A program made the position numbers and the translations under genes. This document shows, one piece after another, positions 1,429-34,983 of a stretch of 36,764 nt of DNA. The notes under the pieces were generated by a model. That model worked only from the letters and a program-made list of their open reading frames with translations. It was not told where the DNA came from and ran no database searches. The stretch is from Candidatus Uhrbacteria bacterium. GTDB lineage: Bacteria; Patescibacteriota; Patescibacteriia; UBA9934. The first letter of the stretch is position 1. Every line of letters starts with the position of its first letter. The stretch spans positions 1 to 36,764 of the forward strand of contig CALRGN010000002.1 of the NCBI GenBank assembly GCA_943357745.1, written 5' to 3'.

Positions 1429-2565
1429 CTAGAAATTATCGTCAATTGAAGTAACCCCACTCTCGGCTGTATTTGGATTGTAATCGGAGGAACTATCAAT
1501 CACCGTACCGATGCTGTAATTGTCAAAGAAAACATCGCTAACCGTAACTAGATCGGCGCCATACCAATCACTGCCGTAATCAGCTACCACTAAAGCTGGG
1601 GTCAGATAATGTCTTAGCACCGCTCCTTCTGCTACAGCGTATACCTCGGCACTACTCGCAAATTTAATCGTGGTTGTACCCGGCTTGATGGTGACATTTT
1701 CACCAATCACCAAACTAGACATAAAACTGGTAGTAACTTCAACTACATCATCAAAGTCATTGTACCAACTAAAGAACACTGCTTCATTTGGGAATGTATG
1801 ACGCTTGTTATCTGTTCCCCAATAGTAAACCGTTTTGCAGGGATCATTTGCCAAGACTTTACTTCCGCATGTGGTCTTAATCAAATCTCCCTCATCAGCT
1901 GATCCGGAGCTCACGGTTGGGGTCGGTATCGGGGTCGCGGTAATAGGAGAAACCGTAACCGTTCTAGCACCACCAACGCTGGTGTTATTATCGCCATCAA
2001 TACAGCTGGTATAAACGCTAAAACTTCCCGGATTCACAAAAGTATAAATTTTGGTGAACAAACCATTACTCCCAGCGGACATAGTTCCCACAGAAACCGA
2101 ACTCACATACAAAGTACAACTGGAAACCAGCGATTCACCACTGGTATTAACCGAGATCGTCAACGCCTTATCTTCAGTGGCGTAATATTGATTGACCAAT
2201 GGCACGGTTGGCCCCACGGTATCAATCTCAAAAGTCAGGGTGGTCTCCGAACTTACCTCGTTGTAATTATTATGCGCCCGTACAGCAATGGTGTGATAAC
2301 CATTCGCAAGAGTGGGTAGTGTAATAGAGTAGACATTAGCAAGATCAAGATATCCGCCATTGTCTAACCGGTAGTCATACCAAGTTGCACCGGCGCTGGC
2401 TTGCCAAGTAAAAGTGGGGGTAGCATCATTGCCGGAAATAGTGCCAACAATTGATAGGTTGAGCGGAGCGCTAACGGCGGCTAAGGATAAAGTTGGGGTC
2501 ATCAAAAGTCCCATTACAACTCCAAGGATCAAACCTAACCGGTAATTAAGGGGAATTATTAACAT
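1429..2565 (-). CDS. Secreted or membrane-anchored protein with Ig/FN3-like N-terminal domains and C-terminal repeat modules
   Basis: 378-aa ORF with a hydrophobic N-terminal signal/anchor (LGLILGVVMGLLMTPTLSLAA). Beta-rich T/S/V-rich domains follow. The C-terminus carries two copies of a VY-x-V-x-x-G-x-x-R-H module. Confidence 0.55.
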   Translation of the reverse strand: MLIIPLNYRLGLILGVVMGLLMTPTLSLAAVSAPLNLSIVGTISGNDATPTFTWQASAGATWYDYRLDNGGYLDLANVYSITLPTLANGYHTIAVRAHNNYNEVSSETTLTFEIDTVGPTVPLVNQYYATEDKALTISVNTSGESLVSSCTLYVSSVSVGTMSAGSNGLFTKIYTFVNPGSFSVYTSCIDGDNNTSVGGARTVTVSPITATPIPTPTVSSGSADEGDLIKTTCGSKVLANDPCKTVYYWGTDNKRHTFPNEAVFFSWYNDFDDVVEVTTSFMSSLVIGENVTIKPGTTTIKFASSAEVYAVAEGAVLRHYLTPALVVADYGSDWYGADLVTVSDVFFDNYSIGTVIDSSSDYNPNTAESGVTSIDDNF

Positions 2566-2644
2566 AATGTATTAATCGACCAATTATTATAATATAGAAC
2601 CTCTAATATCAGGTTAGTCAGATTTTAAGAAAAAGTCAAATCTA

Positions 2645-2719
2645 TGGTCGGGCTGGCGGGGGTTGAACCCACGACCTCTTGCACCCCATGCAAGCGCGCT
2701 ACCACTGCGCTACAGCCCG
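2645..2719 (-). tRNA. tRNA-Pro (anticodon GGG), CCA encoded
   Basis: Hand-folded cloverleaf from the reverse complement: CGGGCTG-TA-GCGC-AGTGGTA-GCGC-G-CTTGC-ATGGGGT-GCAAG-AGGTC-GTGGG-TTCAACC-CCCGC-CAGCCCG-A-CCA. The acceptor stem is 7 bp, the T-loop is TTCAACC, and the anticodon loop is A-T-GGG-G-T. Confidence 0.9.
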
Positions 2720-2746
2720 ATATTTTCCGCTCAATTTAGTCGCCCG

Positions 2747-2775
2747 AATATAGCACCGCTTGCCAAGAATGTAAA
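2747..2775 (-). promoter_or_regulatory. Sigma70-like promoter for tRNA-Pro (TTTACA-17-TATATT on the minus strand)
   Basis: The minus strand reads TTTACA (2775-2770), a 17-nt spacer, then TATATT (2752-2747). This lies about 28 nt upstream of the tRNA 5' end. Confidence 0.5.
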
Positions 2776-2788
2776 CCCGTGCTATGAT
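2760..2788 (+). promoter_or_regulatory. Sigma70-like promoter (TTGCCA-17-TATGAT) driving the ORF-free structured region
   Basis: TTGCCA at 2760-2765, a 17-nt spacer, TATGAT at 2783-2788. It sits back-to-back with the tRNA-Pro promoter. Confidence 0.5.
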
Positions 2789-2794
2789 CTTCCC

Positions 2795-3131
2795 TGAAGT
2801 CTGGTGACATTAAGCTAGACAAATTTCTCCCGTCCCGTTAGGGGTAGCGGGTTAAACCGAAGCTGTGTAGAGGGCAGTAGCGGTCACACTAACGAGTACG
2901 CAGAACTCGTTAATTCATTTCAGTGTTGATGAGAATCATAGCTGACATGCGTTGTGTGTGGGGAGCAGGGGTTTGGCCGGTCCATGTGGCGGGTGAGTCT
3001 CAACGGACATTAAAAAGTGGACTATCTGTAGCAGGCTAAGCTCCTCTTGCCTGTGGCCAAATCTCTGCTGCTCCCCCGCAGCATAACCATCCCGAAAGTT
3101 ACCGTGAAGCTCCACCGCTGGTGGGGCTTTT
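2795..3131 (+). ncRNA. Candidate structured RNA of unknown class (~335 nt), or a long attenuator-type leader
   Basis: No ORF of 60 aa or more in any frame. The region is bounded by a promoter and an intrinsic terminator. Hand-found helices: 2829-2836/2841-2851; 2890-2897/2905-2912 (8 bp, loop ACGCAGA); long-range 2960-2978/3055-3076 (~19 bp with two small bulges) enclosing 2979-2984/3018-3023 and 3031-3036/3049-3054. Confidence 0.45.
3109..3131 (+). terminator. Rho-independent terminator-like hairpin
   Basis: GCTCCACC-GCT-GGTGGGGC forms an 8-bp stem with one G.U pair and a 3-nt loop, followed by TTTT. Confidence 0.5.
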
Positions 3132-3180
3132 GCATTGTCACTGGTCTACTCTCTTAGATTGCGCTACCATACTGACACCT

Positions 3181-3759
3181 ATGTTGAATGAGATTGTCTT
3201 TGATATTGAAACTCAAAATACCTTTGATGAAGTGGGCGGTTATTTTACGGATAAATTAAAACTCTCGGTCATTGGTGTCTATTTTTTTGCCACTGATGAA
3301 TATAAGGCGTTTGAGCAAGCAGATCTGCCCACGCTCTTTCCGCTTTTTGAGAAAAGCACCCGCCTAATTGGTTTCAATTCCATTTCTTTTGACTTACCGG
3401 TTTTAAATAATTATTACATGGGTGATTTGCGTGGGCTCCCTCAACTAGACATCTTAAAAGAAGTAGAAAAATCAATTGGGTTTAGGTTGAAACTAGATTC
3501 AATTGCGCAAGCAACTCTGGGTATGGGGAAGTCTGGGCACGGTCTCCAGGCAGTCCAGTGGTGGCGTGAGGGGAAGGTGCAGGCAGTGAAAGACTACTGT
3601 CTTCAAGATGTAAAAGTGACTAAGGAGATTTATGAATTTGGTCTCAAAAACGGTTACCTTTTATATGACGACCGCGCCGGTGAACGGCAAGTAATTGAGG
3701 TGGATTTCCGGGTGGTGGCAACTCCCCCCAGCGCCGTAAATTTAACCCTAGGACTCTAA
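3181..3759 (+). CDS. DEDD-family 3'-5' exonuclease (RNase H-like fold)
   Basis: ExoI motif FDIET lies right after ATG 3181. ExoII-like motif is GFNSISFDLPVL and ExoIII-like is DYCLQDV. The ORF-track GTG start at 3121 lies inside the terminator hairpin, so ATG 3181 is preferred. Confidence 0.65.
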   Translation: MLNEIVFDIETQNTFDEVGGYFTDKLKLSVIGVYFFATDEYKAFEQADLPTLFPLFEKSTRLIGFNSISFDLPVLNNYYMGDLRGLPQLDILKEVEKSIGFRLKLDSIAQATLGMGKSGHGLQAVQWWREGKVQAVKDYCLQDVKVTKEIYEFGLKNGYLLYDDRAGERQVIEVDFRVVATPPSAVNLTLGL

Positions 3760-3825
3760 TGGTGAGAGCTGACCCTGCCGTTTTCTTCTAACCTCACCGC
3801 CGTTTCCAGATTATCCACACAATAA

Positions 3826-3854
3826 TTCACCAACACAACCCATAGTTGTATACT
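3826..3854 (+). promoter_or_regulatory. Putative nrd promoter (TTCACC-17-TATACT)
   Basis: Hexamers at 3826-3831 and 3849-3854 with 17-nt spacing, about 29 nt upstream of the nrdB ATG. Confidence 0.4.
3833..3848 (+). promoter_or_regulatory. NrdR-box-like site 1 (degenerate)
   Basis: ACACAACCCATAGTTG matches about 11 of 16 positions of the NrdR consensus acaCwAtATaTwGtgt. It starts exactly 32 bp upstream of box 2 and lies between the -35 and -10 hexamers. Confidence 0.4.
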
Positions 3855-3864
3855 GCTCAAAGAC

Positions 3865-3880
3865 ACACAATATGTTGTGT
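3865..3880 (+). promoter_or_regulatory. NrdR-box-like site 2
   Basis: ACACAATATGTTGTGT matches 15 of 16 positions of the NrdR-box consensus and lies immediately upstream of the nrdB start codon. Confidence 0.65.
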
Positions 3881-3882
3881 TT

Positions 3883-4878
3883 ATGTATCAAACCTCTCTT
3901 CAAACATTTGCGCCCATAATGCCCGCCAAACCGGTGGGGCTTTTTAACCCTAGGAAGGTTTATCGGCCCTTTGAGTACCCCCATTTTTATGAATATTTCC
4001 AGAAACAACAACAAGCTCACTGGTTGCCCACTGAAGTTCCCATGGAGAGCGATATTGCTGATTATCGTTTCCGTCTTAGTGAGTCAGAAAAATACCTCAT
4101 CATTCAAATTCTCCGGTTTTTTACCCAAGGTGATATTGAGGTCAATAATAATTACAATCAGCATTTAATCCCTGCCTTTCCCAAGCCAGAAATCAAAATG
4201 ATGCTCTCCGCTTTTGCCTCCACGGAAACCATTCATGTCTGGGCCTATTCCTATCTTAACGACTCGCTAGGCCTTCCGGAACGAGAATATTCCGCCTTTC
4301 TAGATTATCAATCCATGCGCAACAAGTACGAATATTTACAACAATTTAAGGCCGGTACCACCGCCGAGCTCGCTTTGAACATGGCCGTCTTTGGTGGCTT
4401 TATGGAAGGGGTAAATTTATTTGCCTCCTTTGCCATCCTCATGAATTTTCCTAGACTAGGAAAAATGAAAGGGGTGGGACAGATTATTACTTGGAGTATC
4501 AGAGATGAAACTTTGCATTCTAAAGGAGTCTGTCATTTATTTAGAGATCTGATTGCTGAAAACAGAAATATTTGGACCGATTCCTTCCGCTCTGAAATTT
4601 ATAAACGCTGTGATGAGATGGTTGGATTAGAGGACGCCTTTATTGATACTTGCTTTGGGCTCGGTGAAGTTCCCGGCCTCACTCCGGGAGAGGTGAAGCA
4701 ATATATCAGATACATCGCTGATCGCCGTTTGCATGATTTAGGCCTAGACGCCAAGTATCTAGTGAGCAATCCTTTGGAGTGGCTGGATACCATGATCAAT
4801 GCAAAAGAGCACACCAACTTTTTTGAAAACCGAGCCACTGAATATTCTAAAGGGGCGGTGGTTGATGATTGGACTTAG
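3883..4878 (+). CDS. nrdB: Class I ribonucleotide reductase small (beta, R2) subunit
   Basis: Ferritin-like metal ligands and the radical Tyr are present: QGDIEV, ETIHVWAY (E-x-x-H then Y), EGVNLFASF, RDETLH. ATG 3883 is preferred over GTG 3877. Confidence 0.85.
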   Translation: MYQTSLQTFAPIMPAKPVGLFNPRKVYRPFEYPHFYEYFQKQQQAHWLPTEVPMESDIADYRFRLSESEKYLIIQILRFFTQGDIEVNNNYNQHLIPAFPKPEIKMMLSAFASTETIHVWAYSYLNDSLGLPEREYSAFLDYQSMRNKYEYLQQFKAGTTAELALNMAVFGGFMEGVNLFASFAILMNFPRLGKMKGVGQIITWSIRDETLHSKGVCHLFRDLIAENRNIWTDSFRSEIYKRCDEMVGLEDAFIDTCFGLGEVPGLTPGEVKQYIRYIADRRLHDLGLDAKYLVSNPLEWLDTMINAKEHTNFFENRATEYSKGAVVDDWT

Positions 4879-4937
4879 GGACGCCGTAACTTTTCACTGC
4901 CAAGACAGTTACCGAACTTAAATAATTTTTTTTAACT

Positions 4938-6845
4938 ATGCCCACTTACACCACCGTGATTGAAGCCTTAACTGCTAATGATTTGGTCGCCGCCCGAGAT
5001 TTGTTGTTAGCCGATCTTATTGATCAAACTCGGGAATTAAATTCTTGGAGTAGTGAATATTATAATGGCAATCGGGAAATTCAAGAGAATCTTAAGCTTG
5101 ATTATTCCAGAAACCAAAACTTCACTTTTTTTGGACTAGAAAATTTAAGAGACCGATATTTATTAAGAGATGAGGGTAATCTGGTGGTAGAAGATCCGCA
5201 AAAGTTTTTTGCCCGCGTTGCCACCGGCATGGCTAGAGGAGATGCCGCCCACGCCCAATATCTTTATGACATCATGAGCAAAGGCTGGTTCATTGCCTCA
5301 TCACCCACACTCATGAATATCGGCACCAAAAAAGGTCTGCCCATCTCCTGTTTCTTAAATACGGTGCCGGATGATCTAGGAGGGATTTTTGATATTTTTA
5401 AAGAGAACGCTTTCTTAGCCAAATATGGTGGGGGCATTGGCACCGATTGGTCTCGTCTCCGTGGTCAAAATTCTCCTCTTAAATCAAGTGGGCTTCGTTC
5501 CAGCGGTGTAATCCCGTTTCTTAAAGTAATGGATTCCGCCACCATTGCGGTGGCAAGAAACGGCGTCCGTCGCGGCGCCGCCGCCGCCTACTTGAGAATT
5601 GACCATCCCGATATTGAAGATTTTTTGGAGATGAGACGCCCCACTGGTGGCGATACTGATCGCAAGTGTTTAAATTTGAATCACGGTTTGATTATCACCG
5701 ATAAGTTCATGCAAGCGGTGGAGAACAATGAAAAATTTGCGCTTATTGACCCGCATTATGGCACCGTTACTAAAGAATTAGAAGCACTTGCCCTCTGGCG
5801 TCGCATCCTCTCCCTCAGAGCGGAGACGGGGGAGCCGTATTTAATTTTCATTGACACTGTGAATCGTGCCCTCCCTCCTCACCATCAAGCCTTGGGGCTA
5901 ACAGTACGGCAGTCCAATCTCTGCACCGAGATCGTACTTCCCACAGATGACACTCGCACCGCCGTTTGCTGTCTTGGCTCAGTGAACTTAGAAAAATGGG
6001 AAGATTTTTCACCAGAGCTAGAGCAAGTCATCGCTGCCTGCATTAGAGCGCTTGATAATAATCTTGAAACATTTTTAGATAACGCTCATCCCGAGCATTA
6101 CGCTAAAGCAATTAATTCTGTTAAGCATGAGCGCTCCATTGGTCTCGGCACTTTGGGGTATCACGGCCTACTCATGTCTAAGCGGTTACCGTTTGAATCC
6201 GTTTCCGCTCGCACCTTAAACAAAGTCGTCTTTAAAGCAATTTACAGCGCCGCCGTAAAAGCGTCAGAGGCACTGGGCGTTGAACGCGGTTTACCATTAG
6301 ACGGCGGCACTAGAAGAAATTCCTACATAATGGCGATCGCTCCCAACGCCTCCACCTCATTTCTTTGTAACGCTAACTCTCCCTCCATTGAACCCATCGC
6401 TGGCAATGCCTATTTACAGAAAACTCTCTCCGGCAGTTTCCTTGCTAAAAATCGCTATCTTGATGATCTACTCACGGAAAAGGGGATTAATACCCCGGAG
6501 ATTTGGAAACGCATTATCGCCGCCAAGGGTAGTGTAGCTGGACTGTTAGAGCTCACCGAGGAGGAAAAAGCGATTTTCCGTACCGGTTATGAAATGAACA
6601 TGCGGGAAATAGTTGAACAAGCCGCTGATCGTCAACCGTTTGTTGATCAAGCTCAATCAGTCAATTTATTCTTCGAGACTCCAATCTCCGGTAAATATCT
6701 CCATGAAACTCATATGCTTGCCTGGAAGAGTGGGGTAAAAACTCTTTATTACCTTAGATCTTCAGCCCCAATTCAGGCCGATAACATCGCCATTGCTAGC
6801 CAAAAAAGAGACCTTGCCAATGAAGAGTGCGCTGTTTGCCAATAA
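4938..6845 (+). CDS. nrdA: Class I ribonucleotide reductase large (alpha, R1) subunit, no ATP-cone
   Basis: Motifs PTLMNIGT, SCFL, SNLCTEI (active-site N-x-C-x-E) and a C-terminal CAVCQ redox pair. The protein is only 635 aa and has no N-terminal ATP-cone (KRDG-type) sequence. Confidence 0.85.
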   Translation: MPTYTTVIEALTANDLVAARDLLLADLIDQTRELNSWSSEYYNGNREIQENLKLDYSRNQNFTFFGLENLRDRYLLRDEGNLVVEDPQKFFARVATGMARGDAAHAQYLYDIMSKGWFIASSPTLMNIGTKKGLPISCFLNTVPDDLGGIFDIFKENAFLAKYGGGIGTDWSRLRGQNSPLKSSGLRSSGVIPFLKVMDSATIAVARNGVRRGAAAAYLRIDHPDIEDFLEMRRPTGGDTDRKCLNLNHGLIITDKFMQAVENNEKFALIDPHYGTVTKELEALALWRRILSLRAETGEPYLIFIDTVNRALPPHHQALGLTVRQSNLCTEIVLPTDDTRTAVCCLGSVNLEKWEDFSPELEQVIAACIRALDNNLETFLDNAHPEHYAKAINSVKHERSIGLGTLGYHGLLMSKRLPFESVSARTLNKVVFKAIYSAAVKASEALGVERGLPLDGGTRRNSYIMAIAPNASTSFLCNANSPSIEPIAGNAYLQKTLSGSFLAKNRYLDDLLTEKGINTPEIWKRIIAAKGSVAGLLELTEEEKAIFRTGYEMNMREIVEQAADRQPFVDQAQSVNLFFETPISGKYLHETHMLAWKSGVKTLYYLRSSAPIQADNIAIASQKRDLANEECAVCQ

Positions 6846-24709: not shown

Positions 24710-25192
24710 CTAAATAATTGAATCACTTGATTTTAAGTATCTTTTCACTTTATCAATAAACAATATCCCGTCTAGATGATCAATCTCATGTTGAAAAATT
24801 ACGGAAATCAATCCACTAGCCGAAATTTCTTCAGGGTGTCCAGTTTCAGAAATAACCTCCACCACCACACTCCTATGTCTATCAACCACCCCCCATATCC
24901 CCGGCACCGATAAGCAACCTTCCTCAAACTCAATCATTTTGAATGATTTGGTTTTAATTTTGGGATTAAAATATGCTTTGATACCGGTTTTTGTTTCCAC
25001 CACAATTAGGCGTTTGTTAACCCCAATTTGCGGAGCGGCTAAACCCACTCCGTGTTCTAAAACAATCGATCGTTTCATCTCGGCTACCAATTGCTTGGTG
25101 TCAGTATTGTCAATATCGGCAAGCAAAAAATCATCCGAGACCGTTCTAAGGATCGGATTGGGATCAACAATTAGTTTAAGCCGGTTTTTCAT
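24710..25192 (-). CDS. def: Peptide deformylase
   Basis: Motifs GVGLAAPQIG, EGCLSVPG and HEIDHLDG. Its ATG overlaps the priA stop (ATGA). Confidence 0.95.
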   Translation of the reverse strand: MKNRLKLIVDPNPILRTVSDDFLLADIDNTDTKQLVAEMKRSIVLEHGVGLAAPQIGVNKRLIVVETKTGIKAYFNPKIKTKSFKMIEFEEGCLSVPGIWGVVDRHRSVVVEVISETGHPEEISASGLISVIFQHEIDHLDGILFIDKVKRYLKSSDSII

Positions 25193-26757
25193 TCAGCAAT
25201 CTTAGCAAATTTTGTGAGTTCTGACAACTCCGTCTTTACTAGTCTTGCGGGGTCATTAATTCCGATCAGAAAATCGGGGTACCAGGTTTGAATTAGGAGT
25301 TTAGCCTTCGCATCGGTAGCCGAAAACTGTAACTCCCTTGCCACTCTAACTGCTTCTAGTCTAGCCCGAGGTGAAGCGTGATTAAGATCTAATTCCCACA
25401 AAGCGTTAATAAATAACTGGCATTTTGGGAATCTGCTAGAGATTGGTGGTCGTTCCAGAAAAATTGAAGTGGTTAAAAGTATTTCCCAGTGTTCCGCTGG
25501 TTGTTCTGTTTTACTCCAAACCTCGATTTTCAATTGGGGGAAGAGTTTAAGCAACTCTTTTTTAAGGCTAGTTAATCCCATCCCAACCAGTTTTAATTCT
25601 TTATTTGGGCATACCACGCAACGCTCCGGCCACCACATTTCCGCTCCGCAAGCAGTGCACTTTAAATCATCGGCTCTAATAAGGGGCAATTCGCCGCATT
25701 GGCATAAAGGTAGCCAACCACATTTATTGCAACGCCAAAACTTACCCACCCCAACTCTATTCAAATAAATTATTGATCTTCCACCAGCAGCCAAATTGGC
25801 TGTCAGCTCCTCAACCGCCACCAATGAAAGCAGGTCGCCGGCTGGTGAATTAAGTGGTTGATGCAAATCAACAACTTCCGGTTCCGTGATTAATCTCACG
25901 GGCCAAACTGTGTTAGTTGAGAAACTAGGTAGCGGATCTTGTAGCCAAAGTTTGGCGCTGTGGGCAGAGGCTAATTTGGTAGCTAGCGTCACTGCGCTGT
26001 AGAATGGCGGCCTTCGTGATTCATTGTACTCATCATGCTCGGCTTGTAGTAAAAAAATATTAGTAAGCTTAGGAGGTAACCGGAAAATTGACGACCTAGT
26101 TCCAACTAGATGCTTAATTTTTCCAGTTCGCCAATCTGCCCAAAGTTGAGCTCGCATTTTCACTGGTAGGGAAGGGGAGTCAATTTTTACCCCCTTCACC
26201 CCCAAAAGCACCGCCGCTGTTCTGGTGAGCCACTCCTTAGTTGGTACCAGGATAAGCGAATGTCCCGGTTGCTTGAGGAGTCCGTAAATCACTCCCCAAC
26301 CGATTTTAAAATTATCACCAACTGCAACGGTCGGCGAGTTGATCGCTAAATATTGTTTAATGTCTTGAATCTCTGCTGGAGTGAAACTAAGTTGCATTGA
26401 AGCACCGTCGCTGGGAGCAAGAAAATCATTACTAGGAATTGCTCGGTCAATAATTGGGAGTCGGTCCAGACCGGCCATAGTGAGAAGTGTATTGGGGCTG
26501 GTTAAAAGCTCGGCCCCCAAATCAGCCATCAGGCCGATCTCAGCTCTAGATAGGAATCCTTTTGCTAATACCGTTGTAACTTCTTTGGCGTTATCTGGGG
26601 CGGGACCGTTTGTTCCCACTACAATCGCCCGTAAAAAACCGCCTCTAAACGGGGCTATTACCAAATCACCAACCGCTAAATTTAACTGAGAATAATAGGT
26701 GAAAACTGAATTCTGGACGGGAAAGCGTCTAATCGGCCAGAGATCAACACCCACCAT
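25189..26757 (-). CDS. priA: PriA-like primosomal protein N' homolog with degenerate helicase motifs
   Basis: It is collinear with PriA: N-terminal VGDLVIAPFRGG, VGTRSSIF, IYLNRVGV, and the Cys-rich zinc region CNKCGW..CQCG..CTACG..CVVC. It has the priA-def-fmt synteny. There is no GxGKT Walker A, and DEEH is replaced by QAEH. ATG 26757 is preferred because it avoids overlap with the upstream gene. Confidence 0.65.
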   Translation of the reverse strand: MVGVDLWPIRRFPVQNSVFTYYSQLNLAVGDLVIAPFRGGFLRAIVVGTNGPAPDNAKEVTTVLAKGFLSRAEIGLMADLGAELLTSPNTLLTMAGLDRLPIIDRAIPSNDFLAPSDGASMQLSFTPAEIQDIKQYLAINSPTVAVGDNFKIGWGVIYGLLKQPGHSLILVPTKEWLTRTAAVLLGVKGVKIDSPSLPVKMRAQLWADWRTGKIKHLVGTRSSIFRLPPKLTNIFLLQAEHDEYNESRRPPFYSAVTLATKLASAHSAKLWLQDPLPSFSTNTVWPVRLITEPEVVDLHQPLNSPAGDLLSLVAVEELTANLAAGGRSIIYLNRVGVGKFWRCNKCGWLPLCQCGELPLIRADDLKCTACGAEMWWPERCVVCPNKELKLVGMGLTSLKKELLKLFPQLKIEVWSKTEQPAEHWEILLTTSIFLERPPISSRFPKCQLFINALWELDLNHASPRARLEAVRVARELQFSATDAKAKLLIQTWYPDFLIGINDPARLVKTELSELTKFAKIAE

Positions 26758-32252: not shown

Positions 32253-32666
32253 ATGAAGAGTCTAGCCAATGTTTGGCAGGGGATTTATCTCTTGCTTATT
32301 ATAAACCTATTTTTATCTGGAGCACACGCCTATTATTATTGGCCCAATTTGGACTTATTTATGCACACCGCTGGCGGATTTTTATTGGCCGCCTGGGGCT
32401 GGCAGGCATGCGGTCTCCGAAATTATCCTTGGCAAATCGCCAGTCTGACCATGATCGGGATCTCTCTTTCAGTTGGTTGGGCCTATGAAGTCCTGGAATT
32501 TATGGGTGATGCCTTCTATGGTGCGGGCAGTAAGTCACTGGTACCACTTCAGGTTGGCTTGGGCGATACTTTGCTTGATTTTGCTTGTGATTTGTTAGGA
32601 GCGGTGGTTGCCTTTATTTTCTATTCCACCCGTATTGCCAGCCCGTATGAATCACCCCTTAAGTAA
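32253..32666 (+). CDS. Small integral membrane protein, unknown function
   Basis: 137-aa ORF with about 4 TM segments. Confidence 0.5.
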   Translation: MKSLANVWQGIYLLLIINLFLSGAHAYYYWPNLDLFMHTAGGFLLAAWGWQACGLRNYPWQIASLTMIGISLSVGWAYEVLEFMGDAFYGAGSKSLVPLQVGLGDTLLDFACDLLGAVVAFIFYSTRIASPYESPLK

Positions 32667-34983
32667 GTTTTCAATCTTTGATCTAGAGCTCGATAACCTC
32701 ACTCCAGCGGAATTACTAAATGATTTTTCGGAGACACTCGGTCAAACAATTGAAACCATGGTTGTGATCACTCCCAATCCCGAGATGATTGTACTCGCAG
32801 AGAAAAATAAAAAGTTTAAAAAAATTATACAATCGGCTAATCGGCTACTACTTGATGGCACTGGATTACGATTCGCTCTATGGTGGCGGTATGGACCGGT
32901 TACACCAGATTGCCTCACCGGTGTGAATGCTTTGAAACTCTTAGCAACCGCTTGTGCCCACAAAAAAGTTGAATTATGTATAATTGGCGGCCCCAGTGAT
33001 TATATCTTGGACGACTGTGCCAAACAGCTGGTGGCCCTCAATCCCTCGCTAAAAATTTCTTGGCAGAATCCCGGGTTGATTGACGCTATTGCCCCGCAAT
33101 TACCAGAAGCCACCCTTAGGTATCTGAAGCAAGAAAAACCCAGAGCAATCGCGGTTGGCCTGGGAATGTTCAAGCAGGAAAATATAATAATTGAGCTGAA
33201 AAAATTATTTCCCACGGAGCGAATTCTAATTGGAGTGGGGGGTGCGTTTGATATTATTTCCGGTCACCTGCCAGCCGCACCAAACTGGCGTGGCCGAGAT
33301 CAAATAATAAAAGCGGTGGGGGATTGGTGGTGGCGTTGGTATTTAGAACCACACCGAACCAACCGAATGTTTACAGCTTTGGTGAAGTTTCCTATACTCT
33401 TTCTATCTCAATACGGACGCACCATTAATTGGCGGTCTAGATTTCAAGATTGTGAACAAACTTTAAGGGCAAAACTACTAAAAAAATCGGCTATGTCGCA
33501 ACCCAAGCAACCAATCAACAAAGTCCGAGTAAGAATCGCTCCATCACCTACCGGATTTATTCACATTGGTACCCTTAGAACCGCTTTGGTCAATTATCTT
33601 TTTGCAAAAAAACAAGGGGGAGATTTTATTATTCGGATTGAAGATACTGATGCCAAAAGATTTGTGCCCAACGCCATTGAGAGCATGCTCAAAACTCTGA
33701 TGGCCTTGGGGCTAGTAGCCGATGAAGGACCAACTTTGGTGAATGATCAACTTAGTGAAAGCGGTCCCTTAGGGCCCTATCAACAATCCAAGCGCTTGCC
33801 ACTCTACCTTGATGCCGCTCAAAACTTGCTCAAGAACGGCCAGGCCTACTACTGTTTCTGTTCAGAGGCAGTTTTGGAAGAATTGCATACCTCCCAAGTG
33901 TCCGCCAAACAAACTCCCAAGTATGATCGCCGTTGTTTCGCTCTCACCGGCGTGCAAGTACAGGATAAACTAGCTCGCTTGGAACCCCATGTGATTAGAC
34001 TGCTAATTCCAGAAGGTGAATCAAGTTGGAACGATTTGGTAAGAGATCAAATCGTTATCAACCATAAAGATTTAGACGACCAAATTCTCATCAAATCAGA
34101 CGGTTTTCCCACCTATCATTTAGCGGTGGTAGTGGATGATCACCTGATGCAGATCTCCCATGTGCTAAGAGGGGAAGAATGGATCTCTTCTACCCCCAAA
34201 CATCTGATTTTATACAAGGCTTTTGGTTGGGGCTCACCAGAATTTGGACACCTTTCCCTACTTGTAAACCCTGATCGGAGCAAACTTTCTAAGCGCCAGG
34301 GGGATGTGGCAGTGGAAGAGTTTTTGAACAAAGGCTATCTCAAAGAAGCGCTAATTAATTTCATCGGCACTTTTGGTTTCAACCCCCAAGGAGACCGGGA
34401 GTTGTATTCAATTGAGGAATTACAATCGGCCTTTGATATTAGTAAATTTAAATCTAGTCCGGTGGCGTTGAATCTTCCCAAATTAGATTGGATGAACAGT
34501 CATTATCTCAAAACCTTAGGGGAGGGTGAATTATTAAACCGGTTCTCACCATTCTCCAAATTTCCGCTCACCAACCCTACGGTAGTTAGGGCGGTGTTGA
34601 TGGCGCGGGCGCGGGCGGTGGTTCTCCCTGATTTGAACGCCGGCCCAGAAGCGTTGCTTGAACGGCGGGATTATGAACCTACATTGCTAATGAACAAAAA
34701 CCCAAGCCCAGCGGAAACTAGAGCGGTTTTAATTTGGTTGAAACTGATCATTAGTGGTTGGTCGGATGAGACCTTCACCGCGCTTTCAATCCTAGAGAAT
34801 CTATTGAAAGAGGAAATTCTAGCAACTGAAAGAAAAAATGGTCTAGTACTTTGGCCCCTCCGAGTAGCTTTAAGTGGTCAAGCCCAGTCCGCCAGTCCGT
34901 TTGAATGTCTTTGGGTCTTAGGAAAGACTGAATCATTAGCTCGTCTTGAGCTCGCCATCGCCAATTTAGATGCTATAATTTAG
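32647..34983 (+). CDS. gltX: In-frame fusion: WecG/TagA-family glycosyltransferase domain (~280 aa) plus full-length glutamyl-tRNA synthetase (~496 aa)
   Basis: N-terminal part: ITPNPEMIV, LLLDGTGL, GLGMFKQE, GVGGAFDIISG..AAPNW, WRWYLEPHR, the WecG/TagA pattern. From ATG 33493: RIAPSPTGFIHIGTLRTAL (HIGH-type motif), IRIEDTD, KLSKRQGD (KMSKS-type motif). No stop codon lies between the two parts in this frame, and the other two frames are closed. Confidence 0.7.
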   Translation: MNHPLSKFSIFDLELDNLTPAELLNDFSETLGQTIETMVVITPNPEMIVLAEKNKKFKKIIQSANRLLLDGTGLRFALWWRYGPVTPDCLTGVNALKLLATACAHKKVELCIIGGPSDYILDDCAKQLVALNPSLKISWQNPGLIDAIAPQLPEATLRYLKQEKPRAIAVGLGMFKQENIIIELKKLFPTERILIGVGGAFDIISGHLPAAPNWRGRDQIIKAVGDWWWRWYLEPHRTNRMFTALVKFPILFLSQYGRTINWRSRFQDCEQTLRAKLLKKSAMSQPKQPINKVRVRIAPSPTGFIHIGTLRTALVNYLFAKKQGGDFIIRIEDTDAKRFVPNAIESMLKTLMALGLVADEGPTLVNDQLSESGPLGPYQQSKRLPLYLDAAQNLLKNGQAYYCFCSEAVLEELHTSQVSAKQTPKYDRRCFALTGVQVQDKLARLEPHVIRLLIPEGESSWNDLVRDQIVINHKDLDDQILIKSDGFPTYHLAVVVDDHLMQISHVLRGEEWISSTPKHLILYKAFGWGSPEFGHLSLLVNPDRSKLSKRQGDVAVEEFLNKGYLKEALINFIGTFGFNPQGDRELYSIEELQSAFDISKFKSSPVALNLPKLDWMNSHYLKTLGEGELLNRFSPFSKFPLTNPTVVRAVLMARARAVVLPDLNAGPEALLERRDYEPTLLMNKNPSPAETRAVLIWLKLIISGWSDETFTALSILENLLKEEILATERKNGLVLWPLRVALSGQAQSASPFECLWVLGKTESLARLELAIANLDAII

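Follow-up and report, generated by a model that had tools for sequence, protein, structure and literature searches.

Several families of structured bacterial RNA, among them OLE, ROOL, GOLLD and raiA, share a recognizable setting: they appear as long intergenic outliers of high guanine-plus-cytosine (GC) content in compact genomes of lower GC content, they contain many well-defined helices and no open reading frame (ORF), and their function cannot be read from the neighboring genes. To our knowledge, almost nothing is known about the non-coding RNAs of the uncultured candidate phyla radiation (CPR, or Patescibacteria), whose genomes are tiny and tightly packed. The locus described here has the same attributes and lies between a tRNA-Pro gene and a DEDD exonuclease gene in a 36,764-nt chromosomal piece of a groundwater Candidatus Uhrbacteria genome of this radiation (contig CALRGN010000002.1 of assembly GCA_943357745.1, positions 1 to 36,764, hereafter the window). 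Region 2720–3180 (461 nt) is both the longest non-coding stretch of the window and the most GC-rich, with a GC content of 50.3% compared with 24–46% in the remaining intergenic regions; it is the sole long GC-rich intergenic region present, and the transcript predicted within it has a GC content of 51.9% against 45% for the window. A preliminary description, made from the sequence alone, had singled out this region as the largest non-coding stretch, and it is so because the other large gaps are taken, one by infA and rpmJ and the other, 567 nt at the window end, by an open frame running off the edge.

The region holds up as a genuine candidate for a new RNA family, with reasonably good support, and has so far been found in one species-level lineage. 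Every feature of the preliminary description is found at its given position or close to it. As predicted from the sequence, it has what is expected of a stand-alone non-coding RNA gene, namely its own promoter, an intrinsic terminator, and no conserved ORF (Table 1). The interpretation that we tentatively favor, with a confidence that stops just short of even, is a stand-alone, lineage-restricted structured RNA having a conserved, functional 3′ module and a leaky terminator that feeds the exonuclease gene. The promoter proposed in the preliminary description is recovered by a promoter scan with 10 of 12 consensus matches and an additional TG extending the −10 element, in a scan that yields 6 promoter-like sites per 1.5 kb where 2.3 ± 1.2 are expected; transcription would start near 2795. 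Both hexamers are unchanged across the four alleles described below, with two spacer substitutions in L094 and L097. The divergent arrangement with tRNA-Pro likewise stands, the two promoters lying back-to-back.

The terminator is also present as claimed, with a stem longer than first described: 11 bp (3106–3130) surround the 8-bp core at 3109–3127, and the Us reach 3131. A simple terminator scan misses it, probably because the U-run partly pairs within the stem, and flags in its place the weak hairpin 2890–2912, directly 3′ of which is a weak terminator-like site (AUUCAUUUCA). In folding of successively longer transcripts, the 5′ strand of the terminator stays free until its partner is made and pairs once transcribed, and no antiterminator or alternative pairing against the terminator appears; in the full-length ensemble the unpaired probability of the stem is ∼0. 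Among the four alleles no change in the terminator is seen where sequence is available, the beginning of the stem being covered by Ns in L097. The U-run itself is short and contains an interruption. As a separate observation, the string GGTGGGGCTT recurs at 3933–3942, inside the start of nrdB.

Table 1. Predicted features of the candidate RNA locus and its immediate neighbors. Positions refer to the window; MFE denotes the minimum free energy structure.
Feature	Positions	Strand	Basis and remarks
Sigma70-type promoter of the RNA	2760–2788	+	TTGCCA (2760–2765), 17-nt spacer, TATGAT (2783–2788)
Predicted ∼335-nt non-coding RNA	2795–3131	+	ends inferred from promoter and terminator
Hairpin H1 (7 bp, 8-nt loop)	2799–2820	+	MFE; U-G to C-G in L094/L097, loop variable
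Hairpin H2 (CCCGUCCC / GGG..GCGGG, loop GUUAG)	2829–2851	+	MFE and pairing probabilities
Hairpin H3, variable 7-nt loop	2856–2884	+	MFE; U-G to C-G in L097; loop differs among alleles
Hairpin H4 (8 bp, invariant loop ACGCAGA)	2890–2912	+	MFE
Hairpin H5, hypervariable module	about 2917–2949	+	stem rebuilt from different sequence among alleles
3′ Y-shaped domain	2946–3090	+	∼30-bp closing helix 2946–2978/3055–3090; inverted repeat
Conserved linker, predicted single-stranded (UCCCGAAAGUUACCG)	3091–3105	+	unpaired probabilities 0.5–0.9
Intrinsic terminator	3106–3131	+	11-bp stem 3106–3116/3120–3130, GCU loop, then UUUUGCAUU
Spacer, terminator to exonuclease start codon	3132–3180	+	no recognized promoter, no Shine-Dalgarno sequence
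RNase_H_2 / PolB-exo-like DEDD exonuclease, 192 aa	3181–3759	+	Pfam matches
Divergent tRNA-Pro promoter, TTTACA-17-TATATT	2775–2747	−	promoter scan; overlaps RNA promoter back-to-back; outside RNA
tRNA-Pro(GGG)	2645–2719	−	Rfam and ARAGORN

The predicted fold of 2790–3135 on the plus strand has an MFE of −137.2 kcal/mol (z = −4.35), a stability equaled by none of 100 shuffled sequences. The same region read on the minus strand has a z of only −0.57, indicating that the stability is strand-specific. When 94 segments of 346 nt from the window are scored, that of the RNA locus has the second-lowest z (−3.9; background −0.58 ± 1.07). The structure consists of five local hairpins, the Y-shaped domain, a single-stranded linker, and the terminator hairpin, and the helices named in the preliminary description occur in the MFE (hairpins 2829–2851 and 2890–2912 and the long helix, here at 2953–2978/3055–3080). 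Pairing probabilities are near 0 or 1 for most helices. The closing helix of the Y-shaped domain encloses an arm, 2979–3023, whose portion 2985–3016 is poorly defined, and a well-defined hairpin, 3031–3054, that presents an invariant CU-rich loop (UAAGCUCCUCUU).

Look-ups with the exonuclease and NrdB proteins as exact queries yielded four alleles of the RNA, all of one species-level lineage: that of the window, that of L002, that of L086 and L094, and L097. The exact exonuclease protein is present on groundwater and other metagenome contigs and in the metagenome-assembled genome GCA_943354445.1. Substitutions in the alleles were scored against the fold predicted from the window alone. Allele L086 carries 22 substitutions, 6 of them at paired positions even though 63% of positions are paired, and it breaks 2 pairs where 9.0 are expected (P = 0.0002); allele L002 breaks 5 where 10.4 are expected (P = 0.01). 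Compensatory replacement is seen in H4, where a U-A pair becomes A-U in the L002 allele, and in H5, where U2926/A2940 of the window is G/C in the other alleles. H5 folds at the same place in each of the three alleles tested, at −12.1, −12.9, and −15.5 kcal/mol. At least eight further changes are one-sided and keep their pairs by switching G-U with G-C or A-U. The helix of the Y-shaped domain is kept through C-G to U-G and A-U to G-U changes; in H2 of L097 an inner C-G becomes U-G, the loop and bulge of this hairpin being variable, and the linker has a single C-to-T change in L086. The fold thus appears to be maintained by selection within the species-level lineage, a signal that is real but drawn from shallow divergence, and the allele substitution test is stronger evidence than the thermodynamics.

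The rate of change differs along the predicted transcript. Compared with L086, the window has 34 differences in nrdB, none of which alters the protein (34 of 320 third codon positions, ∼11%); the 5′ part of the RNA (2795–3018) has 24 in 224 sites, close to the neutral (synonymous) rate. Region 3019–3180, in contrast, differs at 2 of 162 sites; 3019–3090 is nearly invariant across the alleles, and the spacer 3132–3180 shows one difference in 45 nt relative to L086. This rate contrast implies that it is shape that is preserved in the 5′ hairpins and sequence in the 3′ part, with the reservation that regulatory DNA is generally well conserved here. One possibility that bears on these rates is that the locus is a non-functional remnant at a rearrangement junction, its promoter, hairpins, and terminator incidental or decaying and its transcript a by-product of driving the exonuclease gene. 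The near-synonymous rate of the 5′ half fits such a remnant, as do the searches, which found no homologue outside the species, and the neighborhood 1429–3180, which is not syntenic with any relative, the exonuclease gene having other upstream genes elsewhere and a gene for a 378-aa secreted protein lying in another context. A remnant should not, however, show substitutions that spare pairs far beyond chance, compensatory changes in H4 and H5, strand-specific stability, or a block (3019–3135) that is nearly invariant when neighboring synonymous sites have changed at ∼11%. We regard the remnant explanation as unlikely.

The L002 allele adds a second kind of variation. It has 19 differences within 2867–2951 (22%), five to ten times the neutral level, whereas the flanking 6.5 kb differ by ∼0.5%. 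Throughout this hypervariable patch the hairpins are kept, and the exonuclease and NrdB proteins are identical (comparison of the window with L002–L006, L008, L091, and L093). The pattern points either to diversifying selection or to the import of a short segment from a carrier of this RNA that is more divergent and has not been sampled.

Coding potential probably does not explain the region. As the preliminary description stated, it contains no ORF of 60 aa or more, the longest being 59 aa on the minus strand; this ORF and one of 38 aa on the plus strand are both frameshifted in the L002 allele, so neither is a conserved small ORF of the kind that the preliminary description had named as a possible explanation. 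Six-frame peptides have no significant match to Pfam (best E = 0.12), and the longest stop-free frame, taken as a pseudo-protein, has no match among 1.84 billion protein representatives. A decayed pseudogene of the genes found upstream in relatives was also considered and rejected, tblastn being negative in addition to the Pfam result. A basic 39-aa ORF with a GTG start occupies 3022–3141 on the minus strand, within the most conserved block of the RNA. It is conceivable, but hardly probable, that a small basic protein encoded here accounts for the conservation of that block: by a manual codon count the two allele substitutions that fall in it comprise one synonymous change and one V-to-I change, but these two are the only informative substitutions, no minus-strand promoter is nearby, none of the contigs listed has a gene call for this ORF, the fold stability belongs to the plus strand, and the other overlapping minus-strand ORF (59 aa) is frameshifted in the L002 allele.

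Homologues of the RNA were sought in 75 fetched loci of relatives encoding the exonuclease (amino-acid identity up to 71%). No match to the RNA was obtained with blastn in relatives' loci L001–L084 or in phage genomes, and when a covariance model of the 3′ domain was run over 283 kb, made up of the window and 40 relatives' loci, the window itself was the only match. In a direct search for the RNA, its stop-free frame was translated for use as the query and six codon-degenerate 24-nt patterns were used for scanning; no match was found in viral contigs by the pattern scan. The protein database contains no exonuclease between 71% and 99% identity, and the closest relatives in the genome collection carry the labels Uhrbacteria or Patescibacteria. 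On these sequence comparisons, this is a lineage without sampled close relatives. Homologues of the 378-aa gene sit behind an ABC-F ATPase in a different context, suggesting that 1429–3180 is a lineage-specific arrangement. The comparison with relatives proposed in the preliminary description thus gives a divided answer, the structure being kept within the species and no conservation being found outside it.

The gene directly downstream of the RNA heads a conserved exo-nrdB-nrdA cluster, the nrdB/nrdA synteny being seen in relatives, and homologues of the exonuclease align from residue 1. In all 33 Patescibacteria loci mapped for ORFs the exonuclease gene lies directly 3′ of other genes with no comparable upstream region, and many relatives keep the exo-nrdB-nrdA order without the RNA. 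In addition, nrdB has its own promoter: the exo-nrdB spacer (3760–3918) contains a perfect DnaA-box-like sequence, TTATCCACA (3811–3819), a −10 element, TATACT, and an NrdR-box-like palindrome, ACACAATATGTTGTGT (3865–3880). These observations led us to reject the idea that the RNA is a conserved leader for either the exonuclease gene or nrdBA. Two observations on the cluster stand apart from the RNA. Across Patescibacteria, genes for ribonucleotide reductase are consistently found linked with that of the RNase_H_2 / PolB-exo-like exonuclease (3181–6845 in the window; L010–L039), some relatives having nrdB-nrdA directly 3′ of the exonuclease gene and others having, ∼1.5 kb downstream, a ribonucleotide reductase large subunit with ∼25% identity to NrdA of the window. 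Ten relatives (L010, L011, L013, L016, L017, L019, L020, L022, L025, and L028), but not the window, have after the palindrome a leader of ∼100 nt (CGTCGGTGGAGGAGG..CCACACCCATCCTCAC..) with a hairpin and U7 before nrdB, which has no Rfam match at gathering thresholds.

The main rival is a leader that acts in cis within this lineage. In such an arrangement 2795–3180 would be a long 5′ untranslated region of the exonuclease gene, and a protein, ligand, or physical signal would override the terminator by way of the 3′ domain. The RNA is directly upstream of the gene on the same strand; the spacer has no recognized promoter, in keeping with the preliminary description, the promoter scan finding none there and inspection by eye only a weak TCTACT-17-CATACT; the terminator U-run is short; and the most conserved block, 3019–3180, extends unbroken from the 3′ domain across the terminator as far as the start codon. 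The stepwise folding, on the other hand, reveals nothing that could serve as an antiterminator, although a protein-dependent mechanism may operate, and no riboswitch or T-box matches even at an expect value (E) of up to 10. The 5′ half, which is the usual place for an aptamer, is the fast-evolving half, and the 33 mapped orthologues directly behind other genes have no such leader. A cis-acting leader is therefore possible but, in our estimate, rather unlikely. Of the two alternatives in the preliminary description, an unclassified non-coding RNA or an unusually long leader, the first retains its essentials, namely a structured plus-strand RNA with its own promoter and terminator that falls in no Rfam family, and the second is weakened because the gene directly follows other genes in the mapped relatives and because stepwise folding shows no antiterminator. 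As a separate observation, the exonuclease may be expressed near-leaderless from the weak site, at about 3146–3174.

Under the preferred reading of a stand-alone RNA, transcription would begin from the TG-extended sigma70-type promoter. In the 5′ half (H1–H5) the hairpin shapes would be retained as the sequence drifts approximately neutrally, and the sequence-constrained 3′ half, consisting of the Y-shaped domain with its CU-rich loop, the linker, and the terminator, would carry the function, probably by offering a surface to which a protein or another nucleic acid binds. The terminator would form by default, most transcripts ending there; since no structure competes with it, a discrete RNA of ∼335 nt would be the default product. 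The short, interrupted U-run (UUUUGCAUU) would probably permit partial read-through, supplying the exonuclease, which is probably expressed in this way from the RNA promoter. The transcript ends, the leakiness of the terminator, action in trans, and the assignment of the functional half are all inferred. A Shine-Dalgarno-like sequence precedes the start codon of almost none of the 34 genes of the window, which suggests largely Shine-Dalgarno-independent initiation. A role for the CUCCUC loop as an anti-Shine-Dalgarno element sequestering ribosome-binding sites was dropped because such sites are nearly absent here.

Several results weigh against the stand-alone reading. One coding window (24901–25246 on the minus strand, at the boundary of peptide deformylase and PriA-like genes) has a more extreme fold score than the RNA, with z about −4.9 in 20 shuffles, and stability alone consequently does not prove function. 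A column-shuffle covariation test with three alleles is not significant, its 1 double change being reached by 159 of 500 shuffles. Other intergenic DNA is also highly conserved: the nrdB regulatory region 3760–3918 has 0 differences from L086 in 159 positions, so that conservation of the 3′ half could reflect regulation at the DNA level. The pattern scan of metagenome contigs gave one match, which is strain L086 of the same species, and in the searches made no homologue of the RNA was found beyond the one species-level lineage. Finally, an exonuclease gene without its own promoter is also predicted by a cis-acting leader.

The search for known RNA families used Rfam 15 in two settings: gathering thresholds for the window and 20 loci of relatives, and a limit of E = 10 for segments of 651 nt and 351 nt. 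At gathering thresholds the window contains tRNA only, and the first 20 relatives' loci contain neither tRNA nor any other family. At E up to 10 only chance-level matches occur on the two segments, the best on the plus strand being a match of 14.8 bits to a Pseudomonas leader that is driven by the terminator, so that, as the preliminary description proposed to check, no known family is matched. No relevant publication on CPR non-coding RNAs came up in literature searches.

A highly divergent tmRNA, RNase P RNA, 6S RNA, or signal recognition particle (SRP) RNA missed by current models is nevertheless conceivable. A length of ∼335 nt fits tmRNA or RNase P RNA, the locus adjoins a tRNA gene, the genome, although reduced, has to supply such RNAs, and the terminator stem, AAGCUCC/GGGGCUU followed by ACC, copies the tRNA-Ala/tmRNA acceptor stem, including G3:U70. 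The Rfam tmRNA models (standard, alpha, beta, and cyano) nonetheless have no plus-strand match at E up to 10, the sole match (9 bits, beta_tmRNA) falling within the exonuclease gene on the minus strand. With ARAGORN, no tmRNA is detected when thresholds are left at default or lowered to 90% or 80%, and the calls that appear at 70% are unrelated. The acceptor-like stem occurs solely as the terminator hairpin, in permuted order, and the 5′ end of the RNA has no partner strand. The T-arm (GGNUCGANNCC) is absent from 2795–3135 and the exonuclease gene starts 50 nt downstream, which argues that the RNA is not a tmRNA; a permuted form, suggested by the acceptor-like terminator, was rejected on the ARAGORN result. 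For RNase P RNA, Rfam gives no match up to E = 10, the CR-I (GGAAAGUCC), CR-IV/V (ACAGAA..GGCUUA), and P4 elements are absent on reading the sequence, and the MFE contains no long-range helix joining the 5′ and 3′ ends of the RNA. At the same limit 6S has no match, and the fold is not a rod with a central bubble; SRP RNA has no match to either the small or the large bacterial model. The T-box likewise has no Rfam match and no specifier or T-box sequence, and the downstream gene encodes an exonuclease; no riboswitch aptamer is matched. Taken together, the absence of any match in Rfam 15, even with lax filters, and in ARAGORN leaves tmRNA, RNase P, SRP, 6S, and T-box unsupported, and the statement in the preliminary description that the signatures of RNase P RNA, tmRNA, and SRP RNA are missing is confirmed. 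A housekeeping RNA would also be expected to retain long conserved stretches in related genera, yet the metagenome scan met the same species only. We consider a divergent member of these families highly unlikely.

The likeness of the terminator to an acceptor stem admits a further reading. Its core and the ACC that follows (3107–3129), as read from the sequence, correspond to the tRNA-Ala/tmRNA acceptor stem of Escherichia coli (G3:U70, A73, CC) with the 3′ strand first, and the likeness may be a coincidence, a remnant, or a tRNA-type processing signal. In the last case the RNA could represent a new class of CPR RNA not sampled before, combining a permuted acceptor-stem mimic at its 3′ hairpin with diversifying or exchanged hairpins H3–H5. 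RNase P would then cut 5′ of GGGGCUU, and by analogy the cut would free an RNA of ∼330 nt and leave the exonuclease mRNA with a short 5′ leader, in a manner likened to 3′-end formation in MALAT1/mascRNA. We consider this a very improbable explanation.

The wider gene content of the window is that of an ordinary chromosome, with housekeeping genes for ribonucleotide reductase, PBP, Mur ligase, CysRS, ribosomal proteins, RpoA, ClpB, and GluRS; no reverse transcriptase, Cas protein, transposase, or integrase is encoded among them. One unrelated observation concerns a 791-aa ORF at 32608–34983, in which a WecG/TagA-type glycosyltransferase domain (80–254) is followed by a class I Glu/Gln-tRNA synthetase (305–784); it is either an unusual fusion or the result of an over-extended TTG start. 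The present status of the RNA itself is that of a well-supported single-lineage candidate and not that of a discovery of function. Because CPR genomes are compact, a 460-nt non-coding locus with a selected fold is unlikely to be idle. If expressed, the RNA would found a new family and could open the way to regulation peculiar to this lineage beside the conserved exonuclease/ribonucleotide reductase cluster.

Among the described systems, the resemblance to OLE, ROOL, GOLLD, and raiA in setting and architecture has its counterpart in clear differences: the RNA matches none of the Rfam models of these families, which extend over many genera with strong covariation, whereas the RNA described here is known from one species-level lineage, and OLE, ROOL, and GOLLD are larger than ∼335 nt. 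tmRNA (SsrA) is of similar length, and permuted two-piece tmRNA shares with the terminator GGGGCUU/AAGCUCC, the G:U at position 3, the ACC, and the order in which the 3′ strand comes first. The RNA differs from tmRNA in having neither a T-arm nor a tag frame with the usual hydrophobic end, and here the sequence after GGGGCUU enters the exonuclease gene. Terminator-containing leaders, such as T-boxes, riboswitches, and protein-dependent attenuators, present the same order of promoter, structured RNA, terminator, and gene; here, however, there is no mutually exclusive antiterminator, specifier, T-box sequence, or aptamer match, and the RNA is absent upstream of the orthologous genes in the mapped loci. 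The usual 6S RNA is a rod of ∼150–200 nt with a large central bubble between its closing and terminal stems. The RNA described here is about twice that length, and its long helix closes a three-way junction instead of flanking a central bubble between two long stems. Nevertheless, it shares with 6S RNA (ssrS) a long irregular helix and a position upstream of, and probably co-transcribed with, a promoter-less protein gene.

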